Source: an uncultured Planctomycetota bacterium
GTDB taxonomy: Bacteria > Planctomycetota > Planctomycetia > Isosphaerales > Isosphaeraceae
Reading direction: 5' to 3'
Assembly: GCA_963823665.1 (NCBI GenBank)
Contig: CAWGMQ010000004.1
Coordinates: forward strand, 480,001 to 544,000
Length of the DNA stretch: 64,000 nt
The notes below the pieces were generated by a model, which saw only the letters and a program-made list of their open reading frames with translations, searched no databases and had not been told where the DNA came from. Shown here in pieces: positions 1-55,073 of the stretch. Each line of letters opens with the position of its first letter. Position 1 is the first letter of the stretch. The position numbers and the translations under genes are program-made.

Positions 1-788
1 GCTTTCCCGAAACGGGGCAGAACGATACCGTTCTCGAGCAAATTCGCGGGCACGTTGATCAGGTTCTGTGGGCCCAAATGCAGGAAGAACAGGCTGACCG
101 CCGTGCCCAGGATGAAGATCCACACTGGAGGCGGCATGAGCTTGAAGAGCCGCCAGGGGATCGCGGCCAGGATAAAGAGGAGAGCGGTGCACACGATCCC
201 CAGTCCCAGGACCTGGAGATTCATCGACGCGAAGTGATGAGGTGCTTCCTGGAGCATGGGCCAGAACTCATGGGCTTCGAAATCCAGGCCCATGAACAGG
301 GGTATCTGCTTGGCGATGATCAGGAGACCAATAGCCGCCAGCATGCCCTCGATCGCGGCCGCCGGGAAGATGGCGCTCAACCGGGCCACTTTCAGCCTGG
401 CGAGAACCAGTTGCACGAGGCCGGCGCAGCAAATAGCCACCAGCACGAGGGGGTAACCCGCCTTTAGCATTTCGTCTTGGCCGGCGCGCTTGCCCACGTC
501 TACGCTCCCGAGCCAGATCATTCCGGCGAACAAAGGCGGCGCCAGTCCGGCGGCGGGCCCGCTGATCGTCACGTACGACCCACCCAGGAACGGGAGTACG
601 AAACCAGCGATGATCGCTGAGATGATCCCGCATATCGGCGGCGCGCCGGAGGTTATGGCGATCCCCATCGAAAACGGCAGTGAGATCATCGACACCATGA
701 ACCCCGAACGTAGATCGTACGGCCAATGCTTCAGACCCATCAGACCGTTCTGGGGCTTCTCCATTGTTTTTGTTGAATCAACGTGCAT
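1..788 (-). CDS. SulP/SLC26-family anion transporter (3' part runs off the window)
   Basis: Manual translation from ATG at 788: MHVDSTKTMEKPQNGLMGLKHWPYDLRSGFMVSMISLPFSMGIAITSGAPPICGIISAIIAGFVLPFLGGSYVTISGPAAGLA. This matches the SulP N-terminal pattern D..G.....LP..MG.A..SG......GS...ISGP. Not in the ORF track because the stop is outside the window. Confidence 0.85.
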   Translation of the reverse strand, partial: MHVDSTKTMEKPQNGLMGLKHWPYDLRSGFMVSMISLPFSMGIAITSGAPPICGIISAIIAGFVLPFLGGSYVTISGPAAGLAPPLFAGMIWLGSVDVGKRAGQDEMLKAGYPLVLVAICCAGLVQLVLARLKVARLSAIFPAAAIEGMLAAIGLLIIAKQIPLFMGLDFEAHEFWPMLQEAPHHFASMNLQVLGLGIVCTALLFILAAIPWRLFKLMPPPVWIFILGTAVSLFFLHLGPQNLINVPANLLENGIVLPRFGK

Positions 789-1856: not shown

Positions 1857-2036
1857 ATGGGGGATCGAATGCCCGAGACCGTCGTTCACTTCCAAATCCG
1901 CATGCCGCCGGTGGTTCACGAACAGCTCGCAAGTTGGGCCAAGGACGAGAAGAACTCGCTCAATGCGCTGATCGTGTCGCTTTTGGTCGAGTCCGCGGCG
2001 CGCCGAGACGCGGAGACCACCCGTGCGGCTGGCTGA
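1857..2036 (+). CDS. Small Arc/HicB-like ribbon-helix-helix DNA-binding protein
   Basis: VHFQIRMPPVVHEQLASWAKDEKNSLNALIVSLL fits the RHH pattern (F.IR.P..LH..L...A.....SLN..IV..L). ATG at 1857 or 1869. Confidence 0.75.
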   Translation: MGDRMPETVVHFQIRMPPVVHEQLASWAKDEKNSLNALIVSLLVESAARRDAETTRAAG

Positions 2037-2193: not shown

Positions 2194-2928
2194 ATGAACC
2201 TCTCGGTCCGTGACGCCGCAAGTCTTCTGAAGGTTTCGGAAAAGACGATTTATCGCTGGATCCATCAGCAAGTCGTGCCCGCTTATCGGGTGCAGGAGCA
2301 GTACCGCTTCAACCGGGCGGAACTCTTGGAGTGGGCGACATCACGCAAGCTGAATGTCTCGAGCGAGATCTTCTTGGAGCCCGAGGCCGAGGGGTTGCCC
2401 ATTCCTACCCTGGTCGCCGCGCTTGAGGCGGGGGGGGTGCACTACCGGGTTTCGGGCTCCGACAAAGGAGGCGCGCTGCGCGAAGTCCTGCAACTGCTGC
2501 GCCTGCCAGACGAGGTGGACCGGGAATTCCTGCTTCGGGTACTTCTGGCGCGGGAGGCCATTGCACCGACTGCGATCGGTGATGGCATCGCTATTCCGCA
2601 CGTCCGGAACCCGGTCGTGCTGCATGTTGGCCGGCCTTCAATCACACTGTGCTTTCTCGAACAAGCTATCGATTACGGTGCCCTGGATTGCAAACCCGTG
2701 CATACACTGTTTACGATCATAAGCCCAACCACGCGGGCGCACTTGCACCTCATGTCCAGGTTGGCATTCGTCCTTCGAGACGCTGAAGTCCGCCACGCGA
2801 TCGAGCGGCAGGAATCCCGCCCGCAACTGCTCCGCGAGGTAGCGCGTGCTGAAGAGCAGCTCGCTCCGTCCAATACGCCTTGTCCGCCGCCGGTCGAGGT
2901 CGGCGCGTCGCACTCGGGCTTGCGCTAG
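2194..2928 (+). CDS. Excisionase-type HTH fused to PTS EIIA (Ntr/fructose-mannitol type) domain
   Basis: N-terminal MNLSVRDAASLLKVSEKTIYRW...YRFNRAELLEW (HTH_17-like). C-terminal LLAREAIAPTAIGDGIAIPH carries the EIIA phospho-His motif. Confidence 0.9.
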   Translation: MNLSVRDAASLLKVSEKTIYRWIHQQVVPAYRVQEQYRFNRAELLEWATSRKLNVSSEIFLEPEAEGLPIPTLVAALEAGGVHYRVSGSDKGGALREVLQLLRLPDEVDREFLLRVLLAREAIAPTAIGDGIAIPHVRNPVVLHVGRPSITLCFLEQAIDYGALDCKPVHTLFTIISPTTRAHLHLMSRLAFVLRDAEVRHAIERQESRPQLLREVARAEEQLAPSNTPCPPPVEVGASHSGLR

Positions 2929-2972: not shown

Positions 2973-3665
2973 ATGCAATTAACAGTTCGGGACGTCAGCA
3001 AGTTCCTCCAGGTGTCCGATTCCACGGTGACCCGCTGGATCAAACAGCGTGGTCTTCCTACCCATCAGGTCGGCGGTCGATTCCATTTCAACCGAGTCGA
3101 GCTCCTGGAGTGGGCGACGGCCAATCGCCTCAAGGTGTGTGTGGAGGCGTTCGACCAATTGGCGCCGGAGGACGAGCCCAGCTCAAGTCTGGTCGAGGCG
3201 CTCGAAACGGGCGGGATTTTCTATCACATGACGGATTCCACGAAGGAGCGTACATTGGGGGCCCTGGTCGAGGTATTGCCGCTTCCGGAGACCGTCGACC
3301 GCGAGTTGCTGCTTCGGCTCTTACTCGCCAGAGAAGCATCGGCAAGTACGGCAATCGGTGACGGTATCGCACTGCCGCATGTTAGAAACCCGATCGTTCT
3401 CCATGTCGCGCGCCCGATGGTCACCGCGTGTTTTCTGCAACATCCCGTCGACTTCGGTGCGCTCGATGGCAAGCCCGTGCACACACTCTTCTCCCTCATC
3501 TGCCCAACGGTGCGGAGCCATTTGCAGCTTCTCTCGCGGCTGTCATACGCATTGCATGATGTGAAGTTCAAGGACGTCGTGCTGCGCCAAGGCCAACGCG
3601 ACGAGATTCTGCGGGAGGCGCGCCGAGTGGAGGCAACGTTTGCCGCGCCGGCCAACCGCGCTTGA
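2973..3665 (+). CDS. Second HTH-PTS EIIA fusion protein (tandem paralog)
   Basis: MQLTVRDVSKFLQVSDSTVTRW...STAIGDGIALPHVRNP is collinear with 2194-2928. Confidence 0.9.
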   Translation: MQLTVRDVSKFLQVSDSTVTRWIKQRGLPTHQVGGRFHFNRVELLEWATANRLKVCVEAFDQLAPEDEPSSSLVEALETGGIFYHMTDSTKERTLGALVEVLPLPETVDRELLLRLLLAREASASTAIGDGIALPHVRNPIVLHVARPMVTACFLQHPVDFGALDGKPVHTLFSLICPTVRSHLQLLSRLSYALHDVKFKDVVLRQGQRDEILREARRVEATFAAPANRA

Positions 3666-5680
3666 GGGCGAACCATTCGATGGACGTCAAGGACGAACGC
3701 GGCCGGTCGAGGCATTCCGGGCAGAAACGGGACTCCCAAGGCTTACTCACGACGGTCTGCGGTGCGGGCGTCGTCGTCGCGGCCTGCTTCGTCGTTCTGA
3801 TTCCGACGCTTCAAGTCCTGGTCCGAGGGTCATCCCTGTCTGTGAGTCTGCCCTGGGACGTCCCCCACGGGAACTTCCGCATCGGCCTGGACATGCTTAG
3901 CGCATTTTTCCTGCTGCCCGTCCTGGTTCTTTCCGCGCTCGCAGCCGTTTACGGCGCCGACTATCTTCTGCCATTTCGCGGCAAGAAATCCCTTGCTACT
4001 TCCTGGTTCTTCTTCGCCACGTTTGTGGCCGGGATGGTGATGGTCTTGATCGCCCGGACGGCGCTCCTTTTCCTCATGTCGTGGGAGGCGATGTCGCTCT
4101 CGGCCTATTTCCTGGTCACGTTCGAGCACGAGAAGGACGATGTGCGCCGGGCGGGTTGGATCTATCTGGTCGCGGCTCACATTGGCGTCGCTTTTCTATT
4201 TGCGACTTTTTTCCTCCTCGGACGCCAGGCGGGCGGCCTTGATTTTGACTCGTTCTCGAGGATCCCGGCGATTGCAGCCGGTCCAGCGGGGTTGATCTTC
4301 GTGTTGGCGCTCGTCGGATTCGGCGCGAAAGCGGGCCTTGTTCCGTTCCACGTCTGGCTTCCCGAAGCCCACCCGGCCGCTCCGTCGCACGTCTCGGCCT
4401 TGATGTCCGGCGTGATGATCAAGATGGGCATATACGGGCTCCTTCGAGTTGTGTCCTTCATAGGCCCTCCCGCCTCATGGTGGGGGCTCTCCCTCGGTGC
4501 ATTGGGTCTACTCACCGCTCTGGTCGGGATCTCGCTGGCTGTTTACCAGCGAGATATGAAGCGAGTGCTCGCCTATTCCAGCATCGAGAACATGGGTCTG
4601 ATCGGCCTTGCCTTGGGTGCAGGTCTCTTCGGTTTCTCCAGTGGGCATAGCGCCGTCGCGGCGCTGGCCACATCGGCTGGGCTGCTTCACATCTGGAACC
4701 ACGCTCTGATGAAGTGTCTGATGTTCTTCGCCGCCGGCAGTGTGCTACATGGGACGGGCACAAAGGACATGGAAAAGCTCGGCGGAGTTGCGAGGAGAAT
4801 GCCATGGACCGGTGGCACGATGATCATCGGGGCGGTCGCAATTTCGGCGCTGCCGCCCTTGAATGGCTTCGTCAGCAAGTGGCTCTTGTACCTGAGCCTG
4901 ATGAAGTACGGTTTAACAACGGGTGGCGGGCGCGGCTTGACGGCCTTGCTCGCGGTCGGGGTCCTCGCCCTGGTTGGCGGTTTGGCGGGAATCGCGTTCG
5001 TGCGTCTGACGGGAATCGCACTGCTGGGTTCGCCAAGAAGCGAAGCCGCCCGCCACGCCCACGAGTCCTCGCCCTGGATGCTCGCCCCGATGGCGTGCCT
5101 GATGTTCCTTTGCTTGGCCGCGGCGGTCCTTCCTCAAGAGATCGCGCGACTTTTCCCTGGCATCTACGACCTGGTCCTCGGCAAGCGTGCCGGTCAGGGC
5201 TTCCCGGGTCTGGAGCCGCTTCAGGCGGGGCTGTCGACGCTCGGCATAATCGACGCCTGCACCGTGACCGCGCTCGCCGTGATGATGGCCGCCATTGGCG
5301 CGTTGATTCGAATAGGGGCGAAGGCTAAAGGCCCGACCTGGGGCTGTGGATACCTCGCCCCGACGCAACGGATGCAATACACCGGGTCGTCTTTCTCGGA
5401 AATGATGGCGGAGCACTTGCTGCCTCGCGTTCTGAGACCACGGACGACCCGGCAAGCTCCTCGCGGCTTGTTTCCATCCGCGAGTGAATTCGGCGAAGAG
5501 CGCCCTGATCCCTTTAGCGACAAGGTCTACGATCCGTTCTTCCGGCGCTGGGCGGAGCGTTTTTCTCGGCTTCGGATTCTCCAACAGGGAAAGGTCAACG
5601 TCTATCTGGTATACATCGTGTTCATGGTCGTGCTGGCCCTGGCGTGGGTGGCCTTCCGGGGGTACTGGAGCGCGTCATGA
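3662..5680 (+). CDS. hyfB: HyfB-like (NuoL/MrpA-family) antiporter-like membrane subunit of an Ehr/hydrogenase-4-like complex
   Basis: Polytopic membrane protein with FLMSWEAMS, KAGLVPFHVWLPEAHPAAPSHVSALMSG, LAYSSIEN, NHALMK, PPLNGFVSKW and TWGCGY..RMQYT. Start may be the ATG at 3680. Confidence 0.9.
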   Translation: MRANHSMDVKDERGRSRHSGQKRDSQGLLTTVCGAGVVVAACFVVLIPTLQVLVRGSSLSVSLPWDVPHGNFRIGLDMLSAFFLLPVLVLSALAAVYGADYLLPFRGKKSLATSWFFFATFVAGMVMVLIARTALLFLMSWEAMSLSAYFLVTFEHEKDDVRRAGWIYLVAAHIGVAFLFATFFLLGRQAGGLDFDSFSRIPAIAAGPAGLIFVLALVGFGAKAGLVPFHVWLPEAHPAAPSHVSALMSGVMIKMGIYGLLRVVSFIGPPASWWGLSLGALGLLTALVGISLAVYQRDMKRVLAYSSIENMGLIGLALGAGLFGFSSGHSAVAALATSAGLLHIWNHALMKCLMFFAAGSVLHGTGTKDMEKLGGVARRMPWTGGTMIIGAVAISALPPLNGFVSKWLLYLSLMKYGLTTGGGRGLTALLAVGVLALVGGLAGIAFVRLTGIALLGSPRSEAARHAHESSPWMLAPMACLMFLCLAAAVLPQEIARLFPGIYDLVLGKRAGQGFPGLEPLQAGLSTLGIIDACTVTALAVMMAAIGALIRIGAKAKGPTWGCGYLAPTQRMQYTGSSFSEMMAEHLLPRVLRPRTTRQAPRGLFPSASEFGEERPDPFSDKVYDPFFRRWAERFSRLRILQQGKVNVYLVYIVFMVVLALAWVAFRGYWSAS

Positions 5681-7656
5681 GCGAGTGGCTGGTTGTATCG
5701 GGAACGATTGTGGCCGCCTTGAGCGGTCTGCCAGGCCTGTTGCGCGGTCGCGGTTCGATGAGCGGACAGTGGATGACCACCGTGCTTGCCGTGCTGGCGT
5801 CCGGCCTGGGCCTGGGGGGTGTCTTCTGGTTCTGGACGTCGGGAGAGAGCCGCCCGATCGTAATGCCCTGGGCCATCCCCGGCGCGCAGTTCAACGTAGC
5901 CATCGACGGTTTGTCGGCCTTCTTCCTTGTACCGGTCTTTCTGGTTTCGCTTTTGGGAAACATCTACGGGCTGGGCTACTGGAAGCAGACCGAGCACCCG
6001 CAGAACGGCCGGAGGCTCCGGGTTTTCTACGGAACGTTGACCGCCGGTATGGCACTGCAACTGATTGCACGCGACGGCATACTTTTCCTGTTCGGCTGGG
6101 AGATCATGGGCCTTTCGACCTTTTTTCTGATCATGACGGAGGACCAGGAAAAAGACGTCCAGGAAGCCGGGTGGATCTACCTGGTTGTCACGCATACTGC
6201 AACACTCTGCCTGTTCGGAATCTTTGCGCTCTTGCGCGCCGGCAGTGGCTCGTTCTTGATCGCCCCGCTTGAGCCGGATGCCCTGACGCCGGGAGTGGCG
6301 ACTGCGATTTTCGTGTTGTCGCTCGTCGGTTTCGGCTCGAAGGCCGGCATCATGCCCTTGCACATCTGGCTGCCCAGTGCGCACGCCGTCGCACCCAGCC
6401 ATGTCTCGGCGATCATGTCAGGGGTCAACATCAAAGTCGCCACATACGGCCTCATCCGCGTAATGTCCCTGATGCCAGCTCCGCCGCTGGCGTGGGGTGC
6501 CATCGTCCTGGCGCTGGGCGTGGTGTCGGGCGTCCTTGGCGTGGCGCTTGCTATCGGTCAACACGATCTGAAGCGGCTGCTGGCGTACCATAGCATCGAG
6601 AACATCGGAATCATCGTGATCGGGCTGGGACTGGCGCTCATCGGCCGCTCGATCGGCCGCGAGGATCTGGTGATTCTCGGTCTGGGTGGTTGTTTGCTGC
6701 ATGTCTGGAACCACGCCCTGTTCAAGGCCCTGCTGTTTTTGAGCGCCGGCTCCATCATCCACTCCGTCCACACCCGCGAAATCGATCATATGGGGGGTCT
6801 GGCGAAGTCGATGCCGTGGACTTCCCTCTGCTTCGTGGTCGGGTCGGTCGCGATCTGCGGCTTGCCGCCGCTGAACGGATTTGTCAGCGAGTTTCTCATA
6901 TACCTCGGCCTGTTCGGCACGCTCACAAACGGGGCCGGCCGCACGTTCGCCGGTGGATCGTTTGCCGCGCCGGCACTCGCCCTGATCGGCGCTCTGGCGG
7001 TCGCCTGTTTTGTGAAGGTATACGGAGCGATCTTCCTGGGTACGCCACGGTCGGAACATGCTCGGCATGCACACGAAGCTCCGCTCTCCATGATCGGGCC
7101 GATGAGCGTGCTGGTTGGGTGCTGCTTCCTGATCGGGCTCGCCCCACGGCGTGTGGCGCCGATGCTGGCGAGTGGTATCTCGGCCTGGGCACCGAGCCTG
7201 AACGAGCCGGGCTCGCGCCTCGTCTCGTTGGCCCCCCTGAACTGGATAACGACCATGGGCCTGCTGCTGGTCGCGGCCCTGATGTTGGCTGGCTCATTGC
7301 TACGGTTCCAGGTCGCCCGCGCTCCGGTCGCCAGCGGCGCCACCTGGGGTTGCGGTTACCTGGCGCCGACCCCGCGCATGCAATACACGTCGTCCTCATT
7401 CGCGCAGATGCTGGTCGGGATGTTCGCCTGGGTGCTTCGCCCCCGGACGCACGGGCCAGAAGAGTTGCCGCTGTTCCCGCGGCAGGCTAATTTCCACAGC
7501 GAAGTGCCCGACGCAGTGCTTGACGAGGCCGTGCTTCCTTTCTTCCATTTCACCGCAAGGCTGTTTTCCGCGTTCCGGGTGTTTCAGCAGGGAAACATTC
7601 AGGCTTATCTACTTTATATTTTCCTCGCCCTGATCATTCTGCTGCTTTGGCGTTAA
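5677..7656 (+). CDS. hyfB: Second HyfB-like antiporter-like membrane subunit
   Basis: KAGIMPLHIWLPSAHAVAPSHVSAIMSG, LLAYHSIENIG, NHALFK, PPLNGFVSEF and TWGCGY. ATGA overlap with the previous gene. Confidence 0.9.
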   Translation: MSEWLVVSGTIVAALSGLPGLLRGRGSMSGQWMTTVLAVLASGLGLGGVFWFWTSGESRPIVMPWAIPGAQFNVAIDGLSAFFLVPVFLVSLLGNIYGLGYWKQTEHPQNGRRLRVFYGTLTAGMALQLIARDGILFLFGWEIMGLSTFFLIMTEDQEKDVQEAGWIYLVVTHTATLCLFGIFALLRAGSGSFLIAPLEPDALTPGVATAIFVLSLVGFGSKAGIMPLHIWLPSAHAVAPSHVSAIMSGVNIKVATYGLIRVMSLMPAPPLAWGAIVLALGVVSGVLGVALAIGQHDLKRLLAYHSIENIGIIVIGLGLALIGRSIGREDLVILGLGGCLLHVWNHALFKALLFLSAGSIIHSVHTREIDHMGGLAKSMPWTSLCFVVGSVAICGLPPLNGFVSEFLIYLGLFGTLTNGAGRTFAGGSFAAPALALIGALAVACFVKVYGAIFLGTPRSEHARHAHEAPLSMIGPMSVLVGCCFLIGLAPRRVAPMLASGISAWAPSLNEPGSRLVSLAPLNWITTMGLLLVAALMLAGSLLRFQVARAPVASGATWGCGYLAPTPRMQYTSSSFAQMLVGMFAWVLRPRTHGPEELPLFPRQANFHSEVPDAVLDEAVLPFFHFTARLFSAFRVFQQGNIQAYLLYIFLALIILLLWR

Positions 7657-7666
7657 AAGGAACGCG

Positions 7667-8584
7667 ATGGGAACGATCATTCATAACGCGATCCATGTGC
7701 TCCTGGCGCTCGGCCTGGCGCCGCTGCTGTTGGGGGTCATCGCCAAGACGAAGGCGCTTTTTGCCGGCCGCGTCGGGCCGCCGGTCTTGCAGCCGTACCA
7801 TGACCTCATGAGGCTTTTCCGAAAGGGCTCGGTCATCAGCACGACGACGACCTGGGTGTTCCTGGCCGGGCCGGTCGTGAGCCTGGTCACCGCGGGAATC
7901 GCGGTGCTGTTGATTCCACTCACGGAGTCCACGGCGCCGATCTCGTTCACGGGCGACTTGATTCTTTTAGCGTATCTCCTCGGATTGGGTCGATTCTTCA
8001 CCGCACTGGCAGCCCTGGACACGGGTTCTGCGTTCGAGGGCATGGGCGCCGCCCGCGAGGTTACCTTCGCCTGCCTGGCGGAACCGGCGTTCTTCCTGGG
8101 GCTGCTCGTGCTCGCCAAACTTTCCGGGTCACTTCAATTGGCGGGCATGTTAGGTGGGTCGATCGCGGCCGAATGGTCGACGGCGGGGGCCTCGCTCTGC
8201 CTTGTCCTGCTCAGTTGGTTCATCGTGCTACTTGTGGAGAACTCGCGGATTCCGTTCGATGATCCCAATACGCATCTGGAGCTCACCATGATCCACGAGG
8301 TGATGGTCCTCGATCACAGCGGGCCGGCCTTCGGCATGATCCTCTACGGGGCGGCGCTCAAATTGTTCGTGTTCGGCGCGCTGATCGTCCGCCTGGCATT
8401 CCCGCTCTCGAGCGGCTCTGCCTGGCTCGACTGGCCCATATTTGCCGGGGAGATGCTCGTCCTGGCGGCGGCCGTCGGCATTGTGGAATCGATCATGGCG
8501 CGGCTCCGCATGCCGCACATCCCCGTGCTCCTGCTCGCAGCCTGCTTGTTGTCGGCCTTTGGAATCATCCTGCTCGTAAGGTGA
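7667..8584 (+). CDS. hyfC: HyfC/NuoH-like membrane subunit
   Basis: GRVGPPVLQPYHDL, DTGSAFEGMGAARE and ENSRIPFDDPNTHLELTMIHEVMVLDHSG. Confidence 0.92.
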   Translation: MGTIIHNAIHVLLALGLAPLLLGVIAKTKALFAGRVGPPVLQPYHDLMRLFRKGSVISTTTTWVFLAGPVVSLVTAGIAVLLIPLTESTAPISFTGDLILLAYLLGLGRFFTALAALDTGSAFEGMGAAREVTFACLAEPAFFLGLLVLAKLSGSLQLAGMLGGSIAAEWSTAGASLCLVLLSWFIVLLVENSRIPFDDPNTHLELTMIHEVMVLDHSGPAFGMILYGAALKLFVFGALIVRLAFPLSSGSAWLDWPIFAGEMLVLAAAVGIVESIMARLRMPHIPVLLLAACLLSAFGIILLVR

Positions 8585-8588: not shown

Positions 8589-9230
8589 ATGGACCAGTTC
8601 GTCGATCCGCTCTTGATTCTGGCCCTCGCGCTCAACTTCGTGGCACTTGGCGTCAGCCGGATTCGCGGCGTGATCAGCGCGGTGGCGCTGCAGGGAATTC
8701 TGCTGGGGATTCTGGCGCTCCTGGTTCACCCGGTTGTCGGGCTACGGGGCATTCTGCTGGTCGTCGTGACGATCGGCTTGAAGGGATTCATCATTCCCAG
8801 GTTCCTCGTTCATGCCATGCGGGAGGCGAACATCCAGCACGAGGTCAAGCCGGTCGTCAACTTCATGTCCTCGCTCACGCTGGGGGCTCTCGGCACCGGC
8901 CTGGCGATGGTGTTTGCGTATACGCTTCCGCTGGCCGAGGAGCACAAGAACTCGCTGCTGGTGCCGGCCTCCCTTTCGACGGTATGGACCGGCTTCCTCA
9001 TGCTGACGACGCGCAAGGAGGCGATCAATCAGGTGCTCGGCTATTTGCTCCTGGAGAACGGGGTCTTCCTGTTCGGCCTGTTGTTGCTCGAGGCGATGCC
9101 CTTCCTCGTAGAAGTCGGCTTGTTACTCGACCTGTTCACCGGTGTGTTCGTGATGGGAATCGTTATCCACCACATCAGCCGCGAGTTCACCTCGATCAGC
9201 ACCGAGTATCTTTCCGAGTTGAAGGAATAA
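8589..9230 (+). CDS. hyfE: HyfE-like membrane subunit
   Basis: Hydrophobic 213 aa with QVLGYLLLENG...PFLVEVGLLLD. Lies between hyfC and hyfF. Confidence 0.88.
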   Translation: MDQFVDPLLILALALNFVALGVSRIRGVISAVALQGILLGILALLVHPVVGLRGILLVVVTIGLKGFIIPRFLVHAMREANIQHEVKPVVNFMSSLTLGALGTGLAMVFAYTLPLAEEHKNSLLVPASLSTVWTGFLMLTTRKEAINQVLGYLLLENGVFLFGLLLLEAMPFLVEVGLLLDLFTGVFVMGIVIHHISREFTSISTEYLSELKE

Positions 9231-9233: not shown

Positions 9234-10679
9234 ATGGCCTATTTATTGATCCTTTTCCCTCTTGCGATGGCGGCGGCGACGTTCGCCCTGCCTTCCAGCC
9301 GGGGCCGGGCCTGGCTGCTTCCCGTGGGGGCGCTCGGGCACCTTGTCCTGGTTTACCCGGCTGTGTTCCAGACCGGAACAGGCCCGGTACTGTCCGGGCT
9401 GGGAGGCTGGCTGCTACTCGATCCCGTAGGGAAGCTCGTGCTCGGCTTCCTGAGCGTGCTCTTTTTTCTAAGCTCCCTGTATGCGCCCGGCTATCTGGCT
9501 CTCCGCTCTGACCGACCGAACCGCGTCTTTTGCGCCAACCTTTTCGTGGTGCAGTCGATGATGACGCTGGTGGCGCTCTCGCACCATCTCGGGTTGATGT
9601 GGGTGGCGATGGAAGCGATGACATTGGCCACGGCCCCGCTACTGTACTTCAACCACAACGCCCGCTCGCTGGAGGCGACCTGGAAATACCTCTTGATTGG
9701 CTCGGTGGGTATTGCTCTGGCGCTCTTGGGCTCGTTCTTCCTGGCGTATGCATCTCTCAAGTCCGGCCTGGAATCGACGTTGCTATTCGACCAGCTCGTC
9801 AAGGATGCTCCGCATCTTTCACCGCCCTGGCTGCACGCGGCGTTCGTGCTGCTCTTCATCGGCTACGGGACCAAGATGGGTCTGGCGCCCATGCACACGT
9901 GGAAACCGGACGCCTACGGAGAGGCCCCTGGAATCGTGGGCACGCTTCTCGCGGGGGGCGTCACTAGCTGCGCCTTCCTGGCGATCTTGCGAGTTTATCA
10001 AATCTGCCGCGCCGGGGCCGACGCCGAGTTCGCCCGCGAGCTGATGGTGTTCATGGGCCTGCTGTCAATGGCCATCGCCGCGGTCTTCATGGTTCGCCAG
10101 CGTGACTTCAAGCGTATGCTGGCATATTCAAGTGTAGAGCACATGGGCATTCTTGTGCTGGGCATCGGAATCGGTGGCCTGGCCGTGTACGGTGCATTGT
10201 TGCATCTCATCAATAACGGGCTCACGAAGGGAGTGCTGTTTCTATCGGCGGGCAACATCCACCGAGCTTATGGGAGCAAGTTGACGGACAACGTGCGGGG
10301 AGCCATCGTGCGCGTACCTCTGTCTGCGTCACTCTTCCTTGCAGGCTTCCTGGCCGTTACGGGCTCTCCCCCGTTCGCCCCATTCGTGAGTGAGTTTACC
10401 ATTGTGAACGCCGCAGTCGGCAGCGGGCAATATCTCGCCGGCGGGCTCTTCCTGCTCTTGCTCGGCATCGTCTTCATCGGCATGGGTGTAACCGTGCTGT
10501 CCGTGGTGCAGGGTAAGCCCCCGGAGCAGCAAGAACACGGCCGATTCCACGACAGTATCAGCACCGGTGGCCCGATCATCCTGTTCATGGCATTGGTGGT
10601 GCTCCTTGGCCTCTATGTCCCGCCTCCTTTGGATTCGCTTGTACGCGACGCTGCCGTATCCTTGGAGGTAAGACGATGA
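9234..10679 (+). CDS. hyfF: HyfF-like (NuoM/N-family) membrane subunit
   Basis: MWVAMEA, SLEATWKY, GYGTKMGLAPMHTWKPDAYGEAP, KRMLAYSSVEHMG and GSPPFAPFVSE. Confidence 0.92.
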   Translation: MAYLLILFPLAMAAATFALPSSRGRAWLLPVGALGHLVLVYPAVFQTGTGPVLSGLGGWLLLDPVGKLVLGFLSVLFFLSSLYAPGYLALRSDRPNRVFCANLFVVQSMMTLVALSHHLGLMWVAMEAMTLATAPLLYFNHNARSLEATWKYLLIGSVGIALALLGSFFLAYASLKSGLESTLLFDQLVKDAPHLSPPWLHAAFVLLFIGYGTKMGLAPMHTWKPDAYGEAPGIVGTLLAGGVTSCAFLAILRVYQICRAGADAEFARELMVFMGLLSMAIAAVFMVRQRDFKRMLAYSSVEHMGILVLGIGIGGLAVYGALLHLINNGLTKGVLFLSAGNIHRAYGSKLTDNVRGAIVRVPLSASLFLAGFLAVTGSPPFAPFVSEFTIVNAAVGSGQYLAGGLFLLLLGIVFIGMGVTVLSVVQGKPPEQQEHGRFHDSISTGGPIILFMALVVLLGLYVPPPLDSLVRDAAVSLEVRR

Positions 10680-12208
10680 ACGGCATTGATAGGTTAGCAA
10701 CCCTGCGAACCGGCCATGCCATCCCGCGGCCAGAAGTTCCGGTGCTGCCTTTTGCAGACTTTCGGAGCATCGTGGTCGAAGCGGTCAAGCGCGGGCAGCG
10801 TATCGTCGCGTTGTTTGGAAACATCGCCGATTCTTCGCCCGACGTGGAAATCTACGTCGTCCTTGCCGACAATGCCCGCGCGCAGCTACGCGCTGGCAAG
10901 GCGAGAATGACCTCGGACCGGTTTCCCTCGCTCACTCCCGAGTGCCCGCAGGCGCACCTTTTCGAGCGGGAGCTGGCCGAGCAATACGGGCTCCGTCCCG
11001 AGGGCCATCCCTGGTTCAAGCCGGTTCGCTTTCATAGCTCGTACCGCCCCGGCCACGACGCGTGGGGCAGGCAACCGGGCGAGCACCCTTCAGTCGGCGT
11101 CACTGACTTCTTCCGGGTTGAAGGCGAAGAGATCCACGAGGTCGCGGTTGGCCCGGTTCATGCCGGCGTCATCGAGCCTGGACATTTCCGCTTCCAGTGC
11201 CATGGCGAGCAAGTCTTTCACCTCGAGATCTCGCTTGGCTACCAGCATCGCGGTATCGAGCCCGCGCTGGTGGGCCGGCCGGACAAACGTACTGTTCATG
11301 TCATGGAACATGTGGCGGGCGACACCTCGATAGGCCATTGCCTGGCATACTGCCAGACCGTGGAAGCGCTAGCCGAGTGCCCGCCCTCGATTCGAGCGCA
11401 GACGATTCGCGGTATAGCGCTCGAACTGGAACGGCTGGCTAACCACACAGGGGACCTTGGAGCCTTGGCCGGTGACGTCGGATTCCTGCCGACAGCTTCA
11501 TTCTGCGGGCGGATCCGTGGCGATTTCCTCAACCTGACTGCTCTGCTGTGCGGCAGCCGGTTCGGCCGCGGGATGGTTCTGCCCGGTGGTGTCGGGCACG
11601 ATCTGGAGGAGGCCCGCACCGAGCAGTGCCTCACTCGCCTGGAAGCGGCGCTGGGCGATGTTACCGGCGCAGCAAATCTGCTCTGGAATTCCTTGTCCGT
11701 CCAAGCCCGATTCGAGGGCACGGGCACGATCTCCGAGGAGACTGCCGTCGCACTGGGTGTGGTCGGCCCCGCGGCACGGGCCTGCGGCTTGGAGAACGAC
11801 GTACGCCAGGATTTCCCCGAGGGCATTTATCGATTTGCTCACGTACCGATTTCTTCCTGGACCACGGGCGACGTGTTCGCCCGAGCTTATGTGCGATGGA
11901 TGGAGATCCAGCGTTCGGTGGCCTTTATCAAAGACCAGCTTCTGGCGTTGCCCGAAGGGCCGTTGCGATCCACCGTCGGCCCGCTGAAACCCGACCATTT
12001 CGCCATCTCGCTCGTCGAGGGCTGGCGCGGAGAGATCGGCCATGTGGCGCTCACCGACGCCCAGGGCCAGTTCGCACGATACAAGATCGTCGATCCGTCT
12101 TTCCACAATTGGACCGGACTGGCGATGGCACTCCGGGACCAGCAGATTTCCGATTTTCCGCTTTGCAACAAGAGCTTCAATCTGTCGTATTGTGGCCACG
12201 ACCTGTGA
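10676..12208 (+). CDS. hyfG: HyfG/HycE-like (NuoC+NuoD) large subunit lacking NiFe-binding motifs (Ehr large subunit)
   Basis: GPVHAGVIEPGHFRF, LGYQHRGIE, ELERLANH and VEGWRGE. The L1 site reads EHVAGDTSIGH (no RxCxxC). The C-terminus DFPLCNKSFNLSYCGHDL has no DPCxxC. Confidence 0.9.
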   Translation: MNGIDRLATLRTGHAIPRPEVPVLPFADFRSIVVEAVKRGQRIVALFGNIADSSPDVEIYVVLADNARAQLRAGKARMTSDRFPSLTPECPQAHLFERELAEQYGLRPEGHPWFKPVRFHSSYRPGHDAWGRQPGEHPSVGVTDFFRVEGEEIHEVAVGPVHAGVIEPGHFRFQCHGEQVFHLEISLGYQHRGIEPALVGRPDKRTVHVMEHVAGDTSIGHCLAYCQTVEALAECPPSIRAQTIRGIALELERLANHTGDLGALAGDVGFLPTASFCGRIRGDFLNLTALLCGSRFGRGMVLPGGVGHDLEEARTEQCLTRLEAALGDVTGAANLLWNSLSVQARFEGTGTISEETAVALGVVGPAARACGLENDVRQDFPEGIYRFAHVPISSWTTGDVFARAYVRWMEIQRSVAFIKDQLLALPEGPLRSTVGPLKPDHFAISLVEGWRGEIGHVALTDAQGQFARYKIVDPSFHNWTGLAMALRDQQISDFPLCNKSFNLSYCGHDL

Positions 12209-12227: not shown

Positions 12228-13043
12228 ATGTTTTCCATTATTCGGGAACGACTGCGGCAAGGCATGCGGACGATCGCTTTTCCCAAGAGCGTTCCCGCGC
12301 TTCCCGACCGCTTCCTTGGCTTGCCTGTTCTCGATGACTCGAAGTGCCCCGACGGCTGCCGCGCCTGCATCGAGGCGTGCCCCACCGACGCAATCGCGCA
12401 CGACGCCGCGGGCCTGGCCCTCGATATGGGGCGGTGCCTTTTTTGCAACGACTGCGTGAGAGCCTGCCCGCACGACGGTGCGATCCACTTCAGCCAGGAC
12501 CACCGGCTCGCGAGCCGGAGGCGCGATGACTTGATTGTGCGCAGCCGAGAAGAGCGAAGGCTGGTTGAACCTCTGGATGAGAAAATGCGCCAGCTCTTCG
12601 GTCGCTCGTTGAAACTCAGGCAGGTCAGCGCGGGCGGTGACAATGCCTCGGAGGCCGACTTGAGCGTGCTCGGAACCGTGGTCTTCGACATGGGCCGATT
12701 CGGCATCCAATTTGTGGCATCGCCGCGCCACGCCGACGGCATCGTCGTCACGGGGCCGGTCACCGAGAACATGAAGCAAGCGCTTCTTCAGACCTACGAG
12801 GCGGTGCCGGCCCCCAAGCTCGTGATCGCCGTCGGTGCAAATGCCATCTCCGGTGGAATATTTCGAGGCCACCCGGAGGTCAACGACGGAATCGACGGAA
12901 TCCTTCCCGTCGATCTCTATATCCCAGGCGACCCTCCCCATCCGCTGACGATCCTCGATGGCCTGCTGCGGCTCCTCGGCCGGCTCGAGGATCGGCTGCC
13001 GCTGGGGCGACGGTCGACAGTAAGGGACGCGTCGAGGCGATGA
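12228..13043 (+). CDS. hyfI: 2x[4Fe-4S] ferredoxin domain fused to a NuoB/HyfI-like domain (Ehr small subunit), NuoB-type Cys ligands replaced
   Basis: CPDGCRACIEACP and CLFCNDCVRACP are intact. NuoB-type ASPRHADGIVVTGPVT is present. The ligand motifs read GGDNASE, VGANAISGG and IPGDPPHP. Confidence 0.9.
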   Translation: MFSIIRERLRQGMRTIAFPKSVPALPDRFLGLPVLDDSKCPDGCRACIEACPTDAIAHDAAGLALDMGRCLFCNDCVRACPHDGAIHFSQDHRLASRRRDDLIVRSREERRLVEPLDEKMRQLFGRSLKLRQVSAGGDNASEADLSVLGTVVFDMGRFGIQFVASPRHADGIVVTGPVTENMKQALLQTYEAVPAPKLVIAVGANAISGGIFRGHPEVNDGIDGILPVDLYIPGDPPHPLTILDGLLRLLGRLEDRLPLGRRSTVRDASRR

Positions 13044-13375: not shown

Positions 13376-13785
13376 CCCGATAGTGTATAGATGAACACTA
13401 TTTGCTCGTCAACCACGATGGTAGATGAAAAAAGGGCCGGACGCGTATCACCACGTCTGGCCCTGGTTTGTTTCTCTGTTGACGTAACCGCTCGGTTGAA
13501 GGCGTGTTCACCACCAGCGCATCCGTAGCCACTGGAGTGAAGACCCACCGCCCGGTACACTACCGGACGTCCTCGCGTGCTCGAGTGCTCCGACGCCGGA
13601 CACGACGCGACGATTCTTGCCGACGACGCGGCGATCCAGCCAAGCGTCGAGCAGTCAAGACCCGAAGCGCCGGCGATTTTTTGAAATGCTTTCGGTTTTC
13701 TCGGCAAGTCCGTCAGGCCCAAGACGTCTTTGTGTTTGAGGCGGGCCCCGATGGCCGGGGCGACCCGAAGCGGGAGATCTCCTTT

Positions 13786-16700
13786 ATGGACGGCCAAGCC
13801 TCCCCTCATCCGACGCCCGAGACCTTACGCGCGTACGCACTGCGTGAGCTCGACGGCACTTCGGCCGAAGTCGTGCGCGACCACCTTGAACGCTGCTCCG
13901 ATTGCCGGCGTCAGGTTTCCGAGATAGAGCCTGACAGTTTCGCCGACCGGCTCCGTCAGGCCGCGGAAGGATCGGAAATACCGGCTATTGATCGGCCACT
14001 TGCCGCTACCCCGCAGACCGAATCGCCAGTCGCTGATGGCGTCACCGTCGACTCGTCCGATCGTCCTTGCATGTCTGAAACCGGCCCAGTCGGTGCGACG
14101 TCCGCCCCTCAGAACAGTCCGACCGTGTCTTCCCTCCCAGCAGGGACGCTCGTCGGCTACTTCGGCGACTACGAACTGCAGAGTGTGCTAGGCGAAGGGG
14201 GCATGGGAATCGTCTACAGAGCCCGACAGCTCAGCCTGAACCGGCCGGTGGCTCTGAAGATGATCAAGGCCGCCCGGTTCGCCGGTGCAGAGGAGGTGCG
14301 CCGGTTTCAAAACGAATCCGAGGCGGTAGCGCAGCTCGATCATCCGAACATTGTGCCGATCTTCGAGGTCGGTCGGCTCGAGGACCAGCATTACTTCAGC
14401 ATGAAGCTCATTTCGGGCGAGAGCCTCGACAAGCGGCCGAGGGACTACTTGGCAAATCCTCGGCAGGCTGCGGAGTTGGTGGCAATCACGGCGGGTGCGG
14501 TCCACCACGCTCATCAGCGGGGCATCCTCCATCGAGATCTGAAGCCGGCAAACATCCTGATCGATCCAGATGGGCGGCCTCATGTCACCGACTTCGGACT
14601 CGCCAAACGGGTCGAAGGGGACAGCGAACTGACCGGCTCGGGCGCGATCTTGGGCACGCCCGCCTACATGGCTCCCGAGCAGGCCTCTGGCAAGCGCGGG
14701 GCGGTGACCACAGCGACGGATGTCTACGGCCTGGGAGCGGTCCTTTATGTGCTTCTCACGGGGAAAGCGCCGTTCAGCGGCGACTCGGTGATCGACACGC
14801 TCGAGCAAGTGCGCGAGAGACCTCCGGAGGCGCCCAGTAAGCGAAACGCGAGGGTTCCGCGCAACCTAGAGGTGATTTGCCTAAAGTGCCTCGAAAAGGA
14901 CCCACGTCGGCGTTACGGCAGCGCCGACGCGCTTGCCGAGGATTTGCGTCGCTGGAGGGCTGGCGAGCCCATCGCGGCGCGGCCTGTGAGTAACGCGGCA
15001 CGGTTGTGGATGTGGAGCCGGCGAAATCCTGTCGTGGCCGGCGCGATCGGTTTGGCGGCGGCGGCGGTCGTCGCGATCATCGCCGCCATGGTCGTCGAGG
15101 GTGCCCGACGTGAGGAGGAGATCGCGCGTGTGGCAGCGGAGGCCGATTTCGACTTGGCCCAGCAGGCCGTCGTGGAGTATCTGACCAACGTCAGCGAAAA
15201 CACTCTGCTCAGGGAGCAAGATTCGGTCGACATCCGAAGCCTGCGCGACAATTTGCTCAAGAGCGCACTCACGTTTTATGAGCGATTCGCCGCAAAGCGA
15301 AAGGACGACCCGCGTCTCCGAGAGCAACTGGCCGCCGCCTACTTCCGGGTCGGTCAGATCACGCGTGAAATCGGCTCACCGACGCAAGCGATGGGCGCCT
15401 TCCGCTCGGCTCTGGCCATCTGGCGGCCGCTCGTGGATGCAAATCCGAAAGAGCTCGAGCTTGCGGGCAGCCTCGCCGAGTGCTACCTGGCCATGGGCAA
15501 GCTGGAATTGACCGGAGAGGACTTCAATTTGGCGCTTGAGTTGCTTGGCCACGCGCGCACAACTCTGGAAAGGCTCGTGACAGAGAACGCCGACGAGCCG
15601 CGTTACGAATCGAGCCTCGCCGACTGCTATTCGCATATCGGGATCGCGCAGTCCAAGCTGGGAAAGGTAAAGGAGAGCCTGGCGATCCATGCCGAAGCGA
15701 GAGCGATCCAGGAAGACTTGATCGACCGATACCCGGAAAACCTCGCGTACAAGACCGGCCTGACCGAAAACCTTTCTGCGACTGGTTTTGCGTACTACAA
15801 GCGGCCCGACATCGAGGCCGCACTGAAGACGTTTCACGAAGTCCGGGATATCTGCCGGCGGCTGATGAAAGAGGCGGCGTTTGGGCCCAAGCCTTCCTGG
15901 TTGCTCGACATGCTGGCGTTTACCCTGTCGAACATCGGCAATATCCATAAGCAGAGAGGCGAGATCGAGATCGCTTTGCCGTTTTTCGAAGAGTCGGTCA
16001 AGTACCGGGCGGACCTGGCTGACCAGCATCCGTCTGTCACCAAATATCGTGCGAAACTCGCCGTGAGTTACAAAGAGATCGCCGACCTCGAGCATGGGGC
16101 CCATCAGGACGACAAGGCAATCGCATCGATCAAGAAGGCAATCGAGGTCTATACCGACCTCGTCCGTTCGCAACCCGAAACGGTGAGTTTTCAAGACGAC
16201 CTGGCGTGGTGCTGGGACGAACTTGGCGTGCGTCTCGACGAAGCTCGGAACAACGCCGAGGCGATGCAGGCGTTCGACCGGGCCGTGGCGATGGAGCGAG
16301 CGGCGATTAAGAAGACAAAGTCTGCTGACGCCTACAATCTGAGATTGTGCTACTACCTTGACAACTTGGGAGAGCAGTCCGTCGACCTGGGGCGCCCTGC
16401 TGAGGGGCTGCGCCATTATGAGGAAGCGATTCGGATACGCCGCGAACTGAGCCGGACGAACCGTGGAAACCGGCAGTATCTCATTGAACTCGTCCAGGCG
16501 CTCGTTGCGCTGGGCAACATCGAGCGCCACATGGGCGACGCGGAGGCGGCGCTGCGGTTCTTCGCAGATGCACGGAAGGCCCTGGAAGCGGCATTGACGG
16601 CGACGCCGGGAGATCCCGCGCTTGAGTTTCAGCTTGCCGTCGCGTTCGCCCACGAGGCCGACTCGCTAGCTGACCGGGCCCAGGCCGAACAGGCCAAGAC

Positions 16701-17160
16701 TTTGCTCCAAGACGCGGCCTCCCGGTTTCGCAAATTGGCGAGCCGCGCGGCGCCCGCCGATGAGCCTTTACTCGAACGGGAGAAGCGTAGTGAGACGCTT
16801 TGGAACCTAGGTCGAGTGTTGCGGGATCTCAAGTTACCGGCGGAGGCAGACCGCGTTGATGGTGAACGTGTCGACTTGTGGAAAGCCCAGCCGATCGAGG
16901 AGCTGGTGGATCTGGCCCTCAAACACCTGACCCGCGCAACGCTGGTTGGGTACGGGAAGACGCCCCTGTCGGCGCAGGCTAGAGCTGTTCGCCAGCTCGA
17001 CCTCGATCAAGCCGCCGGCGAAGTGAAAATGGCCGTCGAGCGCGGGCTCCAGGACCTTGACAAATTAGAGGCCGTTCCGGAATGGCGACTCCTTTTCTCG
17101 CGAGAGGACGTGCAATCCGCGATCAAGCACCTCCAATCCCCAGGGCCGTTGACAAATTGA
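13786..17160 (+). CDS. Ser/Thr protein kinase with N-terminal zf-HC2 (anti-sigma-like) motif, TM helix and TPR region; C-terminus altered by IS insertion
   Basis: HLERCSDC, LGEGGMGIVY, VALK, HRDLKPAN, DFG and APE motifs; TM VVAGAIGLAAAAVVAIIAAMVV; TPR-like helices. ATG at 13786 follows GGGAG. Confidence 0.92.
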   Translation: MDGQASPHPTPETLRAYALRELDGTSAEVVRDHLERCSDCRRQVSEIEPDSFADRLRQAAEGSEIPAIDRPLAATPQTESPVADGVTVDSSDRPCMSETGPVGATSAPQNSPTVSSLPAGTLVGYFGDYELQSVLGEGGMGIVYRARQLSLNRPVALKMIKAARFAGAEEVRRFQNESEAVAQLDHPNIVPIFEVGRLEDQHYFSMKLISGESLDKRPRDYLANPRQAAELVAITAGAVHHAHQRGILHRDLKPANILIDPDGRPHVTDFGLAKRVEGDSELTGSGAILGTPAYMAPEQASGKRGAVTTATDVYGLGAVLYVLLTGKAPFSGDSVIDTLEQVRERPPEAPSKRNARVPRNLEVICLKCLEKDPRRRYGSADALAEDLRRWRAGEPIAARPVSNAARLWMWSRRNPVVAGAIGLAAAAVVAIIAAMVVEGARREEEIARVAAEADFDLAQQAVVEYLTNVSENTLLREQDSVDIRSLRDNLLKSALTFYERFAAKRKDDPRLREQLAAAYFRVGQITREIGSPTQAMGAFRSALAIWRPLVDANPKELELAGSLAECYLAMGKLELTGEDFNLALELLGHARTTLERLVTENADEPRYESSLADCYSHIGIAQSKLGKVKESLAIHAEARAIQEDLIDRYPENLAYKTGLTENLSATGFAYYKRPDIEAALKTFHEVRDICRRLMKEAAFGPKPSWLLDMLAFTLSNIGNIHKQRGEIEIALPFFEESVKYRADLADQHPSVTKYRAKLAVSYKEIADLEHGAHQDDKAIASIKKAIEVYTDLVRSQPETVSFQDDLAWCWDELGVRLDEARNNAEAMQAFDRAVAMERAAIKKTKSADAYNLRLCYYLDNLGEQSVDLGRPAEGLRHYEEAIRIRRELSRTNRGNRQYLIELVQALVALGNIERHMGDAEAALRFFADARKALEAALTATPGDPALEFQLAVAFAHEADSLADRAQAEQAKTLLQDAASRFRKLASRAAPADEPLLEREKRSETLWNLGRVLRDLKLPAEADRVDGERVDLWKAQPIEELVDLALKHLTRATLVGYGKTPLSAQARAVRQLDLDQAAGEVKMAVERGLQDLDKLEAVPEWRLLFSREDVQSAIKHLQSPGPLTN

Positions 17161-18422
17161 GCCTGAGTCCGGATAGGAAAGCTTTTGGCGGTACGGAAGC
17201 CGTCCACTACAAGGATTTTCAGCATGGAGGCAACGCATGGAAGCCCACCCCGCCGGGAGTCTCCTTTCCTTTCTTGCCGCGGTTCCCGATCCTCGCAGCC
17301 GGCATGGCCGACAACATGCGCTTTCTGCAATCCTGGCGTTGGTGTGTTGTGCCATCATGTGTGGTGCGAAGGGCTACACCGCCATTGCACAATGGGCTCG
17401 GGACCAAGACATCGGGCTGATGCATCGACTTGGCTTCACGCGCAAACCTCCGAAAATGTGCGGCATTCGCAAAGTTCTAATCGCGTTGAACCCGAAGGCC
17501 TTCGAGGACGCGCTCTATCGGTGGGCCGAATCGTTGTTGGGCCGGCCAGTCTCGAGCGAGATTTTGTCACTGGAAGCCTTCGCGATCGACGGCAAGACGG
17601 CTCGTGGCAGCTTCGACGGCCTCGAAAAGCCGATCCACCTGCTCTCTCTGCTGGCTCACGAATCAGGGATAACGTTGGCTCAGACGCAGGTTTCCAACGG
17701 CGGTGAAAACAAGACCAACGAGCACAAGACGGCTCTTCAATTGCTCCGAAGCATCGTTCTCGAAGGGCGATTGGTAACCGGCGACGCCATGTTCTGTCAG
17801 CGTGACCTTTCCCAGCAGATCATCGATGCACACGGCCATTACCTTTGGTTTGTGAAGGACAATCAACCAACGCTCGTCAACGATATTAAGGTCGCATTCG
17901 CCGCTTCTGCTGAGGCGGCTTTTTCCCCCTAAACAGCGACGAATTTGGGAACAGGCGCAGGATACAGCCACGACCATGGACAAGGGCCATGGTCGTCGCG
18001 AACGCCGGACCTTGAAGGTGACGACCGCGTTGAGCGAGTATCTGGATTGGCCCGGTGTTGCCCAAGTCGGGCAGGTTGAGAGTGTGGTTGAGCAGGACGG
18101 GAAGATCTCACATGAGAGTCGTTACTTCATTACCAGCGTTCCGCGCCAACTGGGCGGCGCGAGTCGATTGCTCGTTTGGGGACGAGGGCACTGGTCAATC
18201 GAGAATCGGTCGCATTATGTGCGTGACGTCACGCTCGGAGAGGACGCGAGCCGAATCCGCAAGGGTTCTGGTCCGGAAATCATGGCTGCTCTGCGCAATG
18301 CTGCCGTTGGCTTCCTGAGGCTTACTGGCGCAACGAATATCGCCGAGACCGTCCGTCGCAACGCTTCCCAGGTCCGAGCACTCTTCACCAAACTCGGTAT
18401 CTTGAATCAGTGAACTGCCCTG
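17141..18422 (+). mobile_element. ISAs1-family insertion sequence (1282 bp) with 10-bp target-site duplication
   Basis: Imperfect terminal IRs CAGGGCCGTTGACAAATT and CAGGGCAGTTCACTGATT. Direct repeat CTCCAATCCC at 17131-17140 and 18423-18432. Confidence 0.93.
17237..18413 (+). CDS. ISAs1-family transposase, split in two frames (17237-17932, then +1 frame to 18413)
   Basis: VPDPRSRHGRQH, AIDGKTARGS, VTGDAMFCQR and VKDNQPTL in ORF1. DKGHGRRERR, RGHWSIENRSHYVRDVTLGED and MAALRN in ORF2. Junction is TTT TCC CCC TAA. Confidence 0.88.
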
Positions 18423-19244: not shown

Positions 19245-19466
19245 CGGATTCATGACCTGCGCCACAGCTTTGCTTGCAACCGTCTCCTACGCTGGTATTG
19301 CGACGGTGAAAACGTTCACTGCAAGATCGCCTCACTCTCAACCTATTTGGGCCACGGCAGAGTCACCGACACGTATTGGTACCTGTCAAGCACTCCCGAA
19401 CTCATGACGGTCGCTGGAAACCGCTTCGAGCGGTTCGCAACCCCGCTGGGAAGGAGGCGCTCATGA
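19245..19466 (+). pseudogene. C-terminal fragment of a RitB-like tyrosine recombinase
   Basis: Manual translation RIHDLRHSFACNRLLRWY...LSTYLGH...TYWYLSSTPELM...RFE. The stop overlaps the next start (ATGA). Confidence 0.8.
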
Positions 19467-21545: not shown

Positions 21546-21548
21546 CCC

Positions 21549-54983: not shown

Positions 54984-55073
54984 GTATATACTTAGGGCAA
55001 ATCGCAACATGCCGATTCGCCCCCAGTGGGAACAAATTGGGAACAACGTTGCGGTGACATTGGAGCCGCAACG

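Follow-up and report, generated by a model that had tools for sequence, protein, structure and literature searches.

Recurrent loss of the proximal-cluster cysteines under purifying selection in the small subunit of Ehr complexes, with a suggested role in inorganic-carbon uptake

Ehr complexes combine HyfB-, HyfC/NuoH-, HyfE- and HyfF-like membrane subunits with a NuoCD-like and a NuoI-NuoB-like subunit (PMC6349859, Supplementary Note 4), and are defined by a large subunit that is related to those of group 4 hydrogenases but has no NiFe CxxC motifs (PMC4378227, PMC10284858). Examples include GSU0739-45 of Geobacter sulfurreducens and the Ehr of Margulisbacteria (PMC7894505, PMC6349859). In the wider superfamily, a chain of three clusters ending at the proximal or N2 cluster has been described as the conserved core of energy coupling (PMC8165549). 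What, then, can an Ehr complex be selected to do once this last cluster is gone? The question is raised by a 64,000-nucleotide stretch (the window) of an uncultured Isosphaeraceae genome (G000; 16.5 Mb, 92% complete), in which a first-pass annotation had noted an Ehr small subunit with all four NuoB-type cysteines replaced.

Nine intact ORFs form the operon, tightly coupled by junctions of -4 to 44 bases, and their gene set is that of an Ehr complex, including a large subunit (EhrL) that likewise has no NiFe CxxC motif (Table 1). The small subunit (EhrS) differs from the usual form in lacking all four proximal cysteines, and we therefore regard the operon as an Ehr variant; the four cysteines are usual for Ehr, but are not given as defining in the published text of PMC4378227, PMC10284858 and PMC6349859. 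The two HTH_17-EIIA copies are the only full-length matches to this fusion found in the host genome. A gene of this type heads most of the Ehr operons among the best 80 GTDB loci, and was not seen in most Bacteroidota loci with Cys-less EhrS, many of which have too short a flank to judge. Candidate operator repeats in 1550-2250 were weak and are probably due to chance.

Table 1. Features of the Ehr locus and its upstream neighbours (positions in the window)
Feature	Position	Strand	Remarks
SulP/SLC26 anion (candidate bicarbonate) transporter	1..788	-	5' part of 589 aa, runs past window start
dabA-like 5' remnant, 233 aa	922..1623	-	72% identical to start of the 978-aa DabA of G001
Small Arc/HicB-type ribbon-helix-helix gene before operon	1869..2036	+	also in G001, L461, L465
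HTH_17 + PTS EIIA fusion regulator, copy 1	2194..2928	+	GIAIPH motif kept
HTH_17 + PTS EIIA fusion regulator, copy 2	2973..3665	+	GIALPH motif kept
HyfB/NuoL-like antiporter subunit 1	3662..5680	+	
HyfB/NuoL-like antiporter subunit 2	5677..7656	+	
HyfC/NuoH-like membrane anchor	7667..8584	+	20 charged residues in at least 90% of Cys-less and four-Cys operons
HyfE-like membrane subunit	8589..9230	+	
HyfF/NuoN-like antiporter subunit	9234..10679	+	charged axis conserved
ehrL, NuoCD/HycE-like	10676..12208	+	no NiFe ligands, no C-terminal extension
ehrS, fused NuoI/HycF-like 2x[4Fe-4S] and NuoB/HycG-like domains, 271 aa	12228..13043	+	no proximal-cluster cysteines; from ORF, families, alignments, AF2
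Intact ferredoxin cysteines of EhrS	12345..12467	+	C40/44/47/80 distal cluster, C51/70/73/76 medial cluster; all kept in 120/120 best hits
D138-N-A-S141-E142 where C-x-x-C-E is expected	12639..12653	+	Asp138 114/120, Glu142 120/120, 141 free (best 120 hits)
N205, replaces third cluster Cys	12840..12842	+	relatives C/D/A/N/S/E/P
D235, replaces fourth cluster Cys	12930..12932	+	relatives N/D/S/W/F

Reading frame, codons and alignment all bear out the annotated replacements. The ehrS frame has no internal stop; D138 (GAC, 12639), S141 (TCG, 12648), N205 (AAT, 12840) and D235 (GAC, 12930) are, as the annotation said, each two changes away from TGY, and GGDNASE, GAN and PGDPP align on GxCNGCxxE, GAC and PGCPP of P. 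furiosus MbhJ (6cfw_J) and E. coli HycG (7z0s_G). Apart from the eight cysteines of its N-terminal 2x[4Fe-4S] domain (40/44/47/51/70/73/76/80), EhrS has none; this domain is intact as claimed, and its clusters were assigned as distal and medial by the MbsN pattern (PMC8165549, section 5). An AlphaFold model from a 119-row alignment has a mean pLDDT of 92.3, and its NuoB-like part matches the fold of MbhJ with an rmsd of 1.5 Å over 131 columns. The residues are not an assembly error, because the sister genome G001 shares the D/S/N/D quartet and two short, independent contigs from a soil run (X2), equivalent to 12618-12768 and 12763-12913, match with zero differing letters over three of the four substituted codons, D235 lying outside the listed contigs. 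Selection rather than decay, as had been proposed, is upheld by a dN/dS of 0.066 for the NuoB-like part between the window and G001, and by similar medians in 51 non-overlapping Cys-less pairs (0.07) and nine four-Cys pairs (0.083). A broken dabA does lie next to the operon, and frameshifts were seen in some relatives from large-contig assemblies (G003, G008), but a decaying pseudo-operon or assembly artefact is hardly credible given nine intact, tightly coupled ORFs, a dN/dS of about 0.07, the same residues in G001 and in independent contigs, and relatives numbering in the hundreds.

The cysteine loss is shared by a whole clade, and close homologs do not retain the ligands: among the best 120 database hits (self included), 62 have no cysteine at the four proximal positions, 58 have one and none has more. 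The D/S/N/D pattern itself, for which the annotation proposed to seek a clade, is found in only 6/120. Asp occupies position 138 in 114 of these hits. At position 141, Ala (74 hits) is commoner than Ser (24) and Cys (8); at 205, Cys (49) and Asp (39) prevail over Ala (12); and the residues at 235 include Asn (63), Asp (27), Ser (16) and Trp or Phe (13). Oxygen or nitrogen donors occupy all four positions in only 25/120, so D/S/N/D is one variant rather than a conserved ligand set, and the notion of four coordinated donors as a conserved new site is not supported. The best 80 GTDB loci comprise 70 CCCC, one CCCS and nine Cys-poor cases, and a second set of loci has four proximal cysteines in 80/80. 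Pattern scans with RQVSAGGD-x3-E, which itself forces Asp138, returned at least 119 and at least 120 stretches; among the matches listed there are 239 loci (222 with EhrS, 17 without), and with nine more incomplete at the four sites, 213 are complete. Among these 213, position 235 is never Cys and is Asn in 184, and position 205 is Asp or Glu in 200; the named loci among the matches listed are mostly Bacteroidota. EhrS of this Bacteroidota clade has lost C40/44/47/80 and keeps C51/70/73/76 at 97-99%, that is, only the medial cluster, leaving neither an entry nor an exit cluster. From 150 representatives, many of them fragments or frameshifted, 11 complete Cys-less ones were chosen by eye; the first position is Asp in eight of these. 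Both Cys-less clades have acquired Ser at 140. The features that recur are the first-position Asp and, among Bacteroidota, D-x-D-N.

Phylogenetic reconstruction indicates that the loss happened more than once. In an EhrL tree of 106 rows, starred four-Cys branches part the window clade from the Bacteroidota clade and five changes are needed, and a single Cys-less clade, hence a single origin, is rejected by an AU test on a 30-row subset (p=8.4e-6). A HyfF+EhrL tree requires four changes and nests four-Cys rows among Cys-less ones within Planctomycetia, and the EhrL tree has one four-Cys row inside the Bacteroidota clade; exchange of ehrS between operons may on this ground add to repeated loss. 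With the ligand columns masked, the EhrS tree places further Cys-less sequences at several points, mostly with weak support. The loss of the cluster ligands is thus real, under purifying selection and of more than one origin. At several loci, two Ehr-type operons or subfamilies lie side by side (L061, L076, L112, L420/L428/L429/L435/L449/L450).

EhrL is closest to HycE in both sequence and fold, and reads EHVAGDTSIGH and SFNLSYCGHDL opposite DRVCGICGFAH and DPCY, the motifs of the NiFe cysteines in HycE. The annotation's picture of a complex devoid of both the NiFe site and the terminal cluster therefore stands. H162, E167, E195, D216, D267, N498, K499, S500, S504, Y505 and D509 of EhrL are invariant across 95 Cys-less, 51 four-Cys and 75-79 second-subfamily sequences; D216, S504 and D509 sit at the old NiFe motifs, and H162-E167 lies in the beta1-beta2 loop, flexible in the model, which is a coupling loop in the superfamily (PMC8165549). 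No EhrL column distinguishes both Cys-less clades from both four-Cys groups, and no compensating change common to the two clades was found in EhrL or the membrane subunits. His38 and Tyr87 of Thermus Nqo4, which we take to be quinone ligands, correspond to I166 and G215, and the EhrL alignment makes both H2 and complex-I-type quinone chemistry unlikely, in line with the annotation's suggestion that ion pumping may be coupled to something else. A model of the EhrL-EhrS complex scores 0.92 (best control 0.00), a mark reached by 116/157 solved and 2/215 mismatched pairs, with at least 92% of contacts agreeing between runs and a partner pLDDT of at least 88, a pass that may be due to likeness because like complexes have already been solved. 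In this model, EhrS 132-147, 205 and 235-238 contact EhrL 160-168, 212-216, 504-506 and 509, and D138, N205 and D235 face EhrL 212-216 and 504-509.

This arrangement would also suit a catalytic or coupling site for Mg, Ca, Mn, Zn or mononuclear Fe, built in place of the cluster from the new oxygen and nitrogen residues, as would the Asp at the first position in most best hits and eye-picked representatives, the bias to Asp or Glu at 205 and Asn at 235 among the pattern-scan matches listed, and the parallel Ser at 140. We nevertheless judge such a site improbable: Ala, Pro, Trp and Phe are tolerated and few best hits have all four donors, EhrL has not co-adapted, and four-Cys operons share the invariant pocket and the gene neighbours, so the function predates the new residues. 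It is possible that the acidic residues of EhrS bind some cation.

A second candidate is that the complex is still a redox-driven pump, electrons from ferredoxin or formate dehydrogenase passing through the two remaining clusters, or through a cluster not ligated by cysteine, to an acceptor in the chamber. This too is distinctly unlikely, as the four positions hold one cysteine at best among the 120 hits, the presumed quinone ligands are Ile and Gly in EhrL, the entry cluster is also lost in Bacteroidota, and no donor module recurs beside the operons. A dedicated electron-donor gene was looked for in the ORF clusters around the loci and among the first downstream ORFs of 63/125 loci, and rejected since none recurs. 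The retention of both ferredoxin clusters in all 120 best hits, a proximal cluster in MBS that is bound by only three cysteines (PMC8165549) and published proposals of an FDH-Ehr or a quinone-reducing Ehr (PMC6349859, PMC7894505) speak for a redox-driven pump. Relay steps in solved relatives are under 12-14 Å (PMC9474812, PMC8165549), however, so that loss of the last cluster would leave a double step. As EhrL offers neither a NiFe site nor the quinone ligands of complex I, and the wire ends in a gap, electrons should not be able to reach the chamber between EhrL and EhrS, and the conserved job probably needs no redox there; the conservation of the EhrL pocket and of the membrane charges in operons both with and without the cluster likewise argues for a selected function that would not require chamber electrons.

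The charged residues of HyfB, HyfC, HyfE and HyfF are present in at least 90% of both the Cys-less and the four-Cys groups, HyfF H222 being the sole charged membrane residue that is partly lost. An intact charged axis in three antiporter-like subunits, combined with no redox end site in EhrL or EhrS, could be read as an Mrp-like secondary ion exchanger or pH-homeostasis system, converting the pmf into a Na+ (or K+) gradient or removing protons, and so supporting SbtA/SulP-type transporters or ion balance, with the soluble arm a scaffold or regulator devoid of chemistry. EIIA-Ntr is linked to K+ transport, and the EIIA-type regulators of the operon would suit an exchanger; so would the Na+-dependent SbtA that adjoins Ehr in G016 and at five more loci, and the Bacteroidota, where carbon-uptake neighbours are rare. 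Judged by its genes, Mrp is the comparable redox-free machine of the same antiporter-like subunits, but the Ehr of the window adds a NuoH-like anchor and a soluble arm, and a family search found no separate MrpB/E/F/G-type gene of the Na+ module (module as described in PMC8165549) among the operon ORFs. The invariant EhrL pocket and the 20 anchor charges are moreover unexplained by a pure antiporter, and beta-carbonic anhydrase (beta-CA) and DabA neighbours favour carbon chemistry over Na+ supply. We therefore hold the exchanger to be rather unlikely.

Gene neighbours point towards inorganic carbon. Upstream of the operon and divergent from it lie a SulP gene and the dabA remnant (Table 1). 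The DabA of G001 (PF10070, E 5e-99) keeps C-x-D-x-R and H-x14-C; relative to its gene, the window lacks about 2.5 kb, with the break between 919 and 980, a deletion known from the assembly, no listed contig spanning the break. No PF10070 match was found in the 92% complete G000. In G001, SulP directly follows dabA, and no DabB-like gene was seen between the two or immediately beyond. A carbon-uptake-type gene lies within 4 kb of the operon in 6/12 Planctomycetia genomes with a full EhrS match, namely SulP in G000, DabA and SulP in G001, beta-CA in G008, G013 and G033, and two SbtA in G016. A second, prospective set was drawn from 121 genomes of the order, 32 of them with EhrS and 22 of these new; two were left out as already known positives (L115, L036) and 20 were fetched. 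In twelve of these 20 Isosphaerales loci, a gene for beta-CA, SulP or SbtA lies 98-637 bases from the operon, against a chance of about 0.7% per locus from the densities of SulP, beta-CA and DabA in 37 family genomes; SbtA is not counted in that estimate, and without SbtA-only loci 8/20 are positive. The relatives in this set are not independent because 5/12 positives belong to one genus, and 5/8 negatives reach a contig edge on one side. The neighbours are variously divergent, convergent, co-directional or PII-fused, and the signal is therefore not one inherited synteny. Carbon-uptake genes are thus enriched beside Isosphaerales Ehr. Positives comprise 6/12 Cys-less and 6/8 four-Cys-type loci; the carbon link is as strong in four-Cys operons, and so does not explain the loss of the cluster.

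Outside this set, SulP occurs at 3/60 four-Cys loci (0.15 expected) and at 6/75 loci of the distant second Ehr subfamily (about 0.18 expected), both expectations borrowing the Isosphaerales density, and at only 1/109 Bacteroidota-type Cys-less loci. Chr-family (chromate-transporter) genes stand behind the Cys-less ehrS of a D-V/T-D/E-A Bacteroidota variant at L129, L145, L265, L276 and L294, and no other family recurs among the first downstream ORFs of 63/125 loci, known SulP and CA cases excluded. Individual arrangements include a SulP gene between ehrL and ehrS inside a four-Cys operon of the second subfamily (L448:7881-9338), two SbtA genes before the four-Cys operon of G016 (L373:5199-8840) with an extra antiporter-like gene after ehrS (15120-16658), and a SulP with a C-terminal PII-like domain that overlaps the ehrS stop (L115:9991-11952). 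Mutual exclusion of Ehr and DabA within genomes was considered and is not evident, as G001, G007, G013 and G016 have both.

The neighbour signal suggests that Ehr has a role in carbon uptake rather than respiration, and involvement in inorganic-carbon acquisition seems to us somewhat better than an even bet, given the SulP, SbtA, beta-CA, DabA and PII-like neighbours. The reading that we prefer, with a probability of roughly 0.45, is by analogy with DAB and NDH-1/Cup, a redox-independent, pmf-coupled machine for inorganic-carbon uptake. The strongly selected Ehr complex (HyfB, HyfB, HyfC, HyfE, HyfF, EhrL and EhrS) has dispensed with the proximal, N2-type [4Fe-4S] cluster; Asp138, Glu142 and often Asp205 and Asn or Asp235 would fill the emptied pocket and maintain negative charge at the EhrL interface, and the remaining ferredoxin cluster or clusters would be structural or sensory. 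The intact membrane arm and E-channel would stay coupled to the invariant His/Glu/Asp/Lys set of EhrL, with the pmf driving the complex-I-like machinery and protons moving in step with CO2 hydration or bicarbonate uptake, and the HTH-EIIA regulators would control this putative carbon-uptake machine. A precedent exists in NuoL-like subunits that serve a vectorial hydration of CO2 driven by the pmf (PMC13684180, PMC13144422). Several observations count against a carbon machine: SulP is rare at Bacteroidota-type Cys-less loci, the dabA of the window is itself broken, the anions transported by SulP proteins are many, and the rise of Geobacter Ehr proteins on formate was linked by its authors to formate dehydrogenase (PMC7894505). 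Also, EhrL does not contain the beta-CA motif Cys-x-Asp/His-x-x-Cys, and its C175 and C506 are not family-wide. Hydration of CO2 inside EhrL itself is the least certain step, and we regard it as doubtful. In its boldest form, the idea would add Ehr to the vectorial CO2/bicarbonate pumps derived from complex I, as a third class: the pmf would drive CO2 hydration in the EhrL chamber that once housed NiFe and is lined by the invariant His/Glu/Asp/Lys set, and the terminal cluster, no longer needed, would have given way to acidic residues on several independent occasions. This extension is unlikely as it stands.

Among known systems, the best sequence and fold matches to both soluble subunits are the group 4 [NiFe] hydrogenases (FHL-1 HycE/HycG/HycF, 7z0s; P. 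furiosus MBH, 6cfw), but EhrL has neither the L1/L2 NiFe cysteines nor the C-terminal processing tail, and EhrS is devoid of the proximal (G1) cluster cysteines. The Q-module of respiratory complex I (NuoB/C/D/I/H) is alike in its folds and membrane anchor; the window operon differs in its missing N2 cysteines, in Ile and Gly at the presumed quinone-ligand positions of Nqo4 and in having no NADH module. DAB and NDH-1/Cup similarly join complex-I-type antiporter subunits to a soluble head, in DAB with no redox input (PMC13144422, PMC13684180), but EhrL has a HycE/NuoD fold rather than that of beta-CA or Cup and no known zinc motif, and the Cys2His zinc site and Asp-Arg dyad of DabA have no counterpart in the window beyond the 233-aa remnant.

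The Cys-less EhrS is a real, selected and repeatedly evolved Ehr variant. Two earlier studies, Coppi 2005 and Marreiros 2013, are reportedly sources on the Ehr complex. A literature search gave no paper on a Cys-less EhrS or on a link between Ehr and carbon; figures, supplements and the two studies just named could mention small-subunit variants. Loss of cysteines in Ehr has been shown for L1/L2 of the large subunit (PMC7304191), and small-subunit loss was not found in the published text of PMC7304191, PMC6349859, PMC4758237, PMC7894505, PMC4378227 and PMC10284858. New here are a lineage that keeps both ferredoxin clusters and has one-Cys and zero-Cys states next to four-Cys relatives, and the prospective count of the carbon-uptake neighbour link. 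A selected lineage that has arisen more than once has given up the cluster while its coupling loop, anchor charges and proton axis persist, which argues that the machine can run with no redox at that site. The natural four-Cys, one-Cys and zero-Cys versions provide ready comparisons, and the neighbour signal makes the function of the widespread Ehr family directly testable.

Elsewhere in the host genome, matches to the NiFe-hydrogenase large-subunit family lie at C5:429169-430733, C4:1388390-1389619 and C1:9067-10293. The window contains no tRNA. Downstream of the operon it encodes Ser/Thr kinases with TPR or WD40 repeats and an ECF sigma factor (13504-17160, 20988-26003, 34181-37060), and a 2356-aa RHS-repeat protein (40502-47572). 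A split DDE transposase, two tyrosine integrases and a conjugative coupling protein (17237-18413, 19376-20473, 55026-56411, 57530-59461) make the region around them rich in mobile elements, and a DNA methylase is encoded at 28191-30161.
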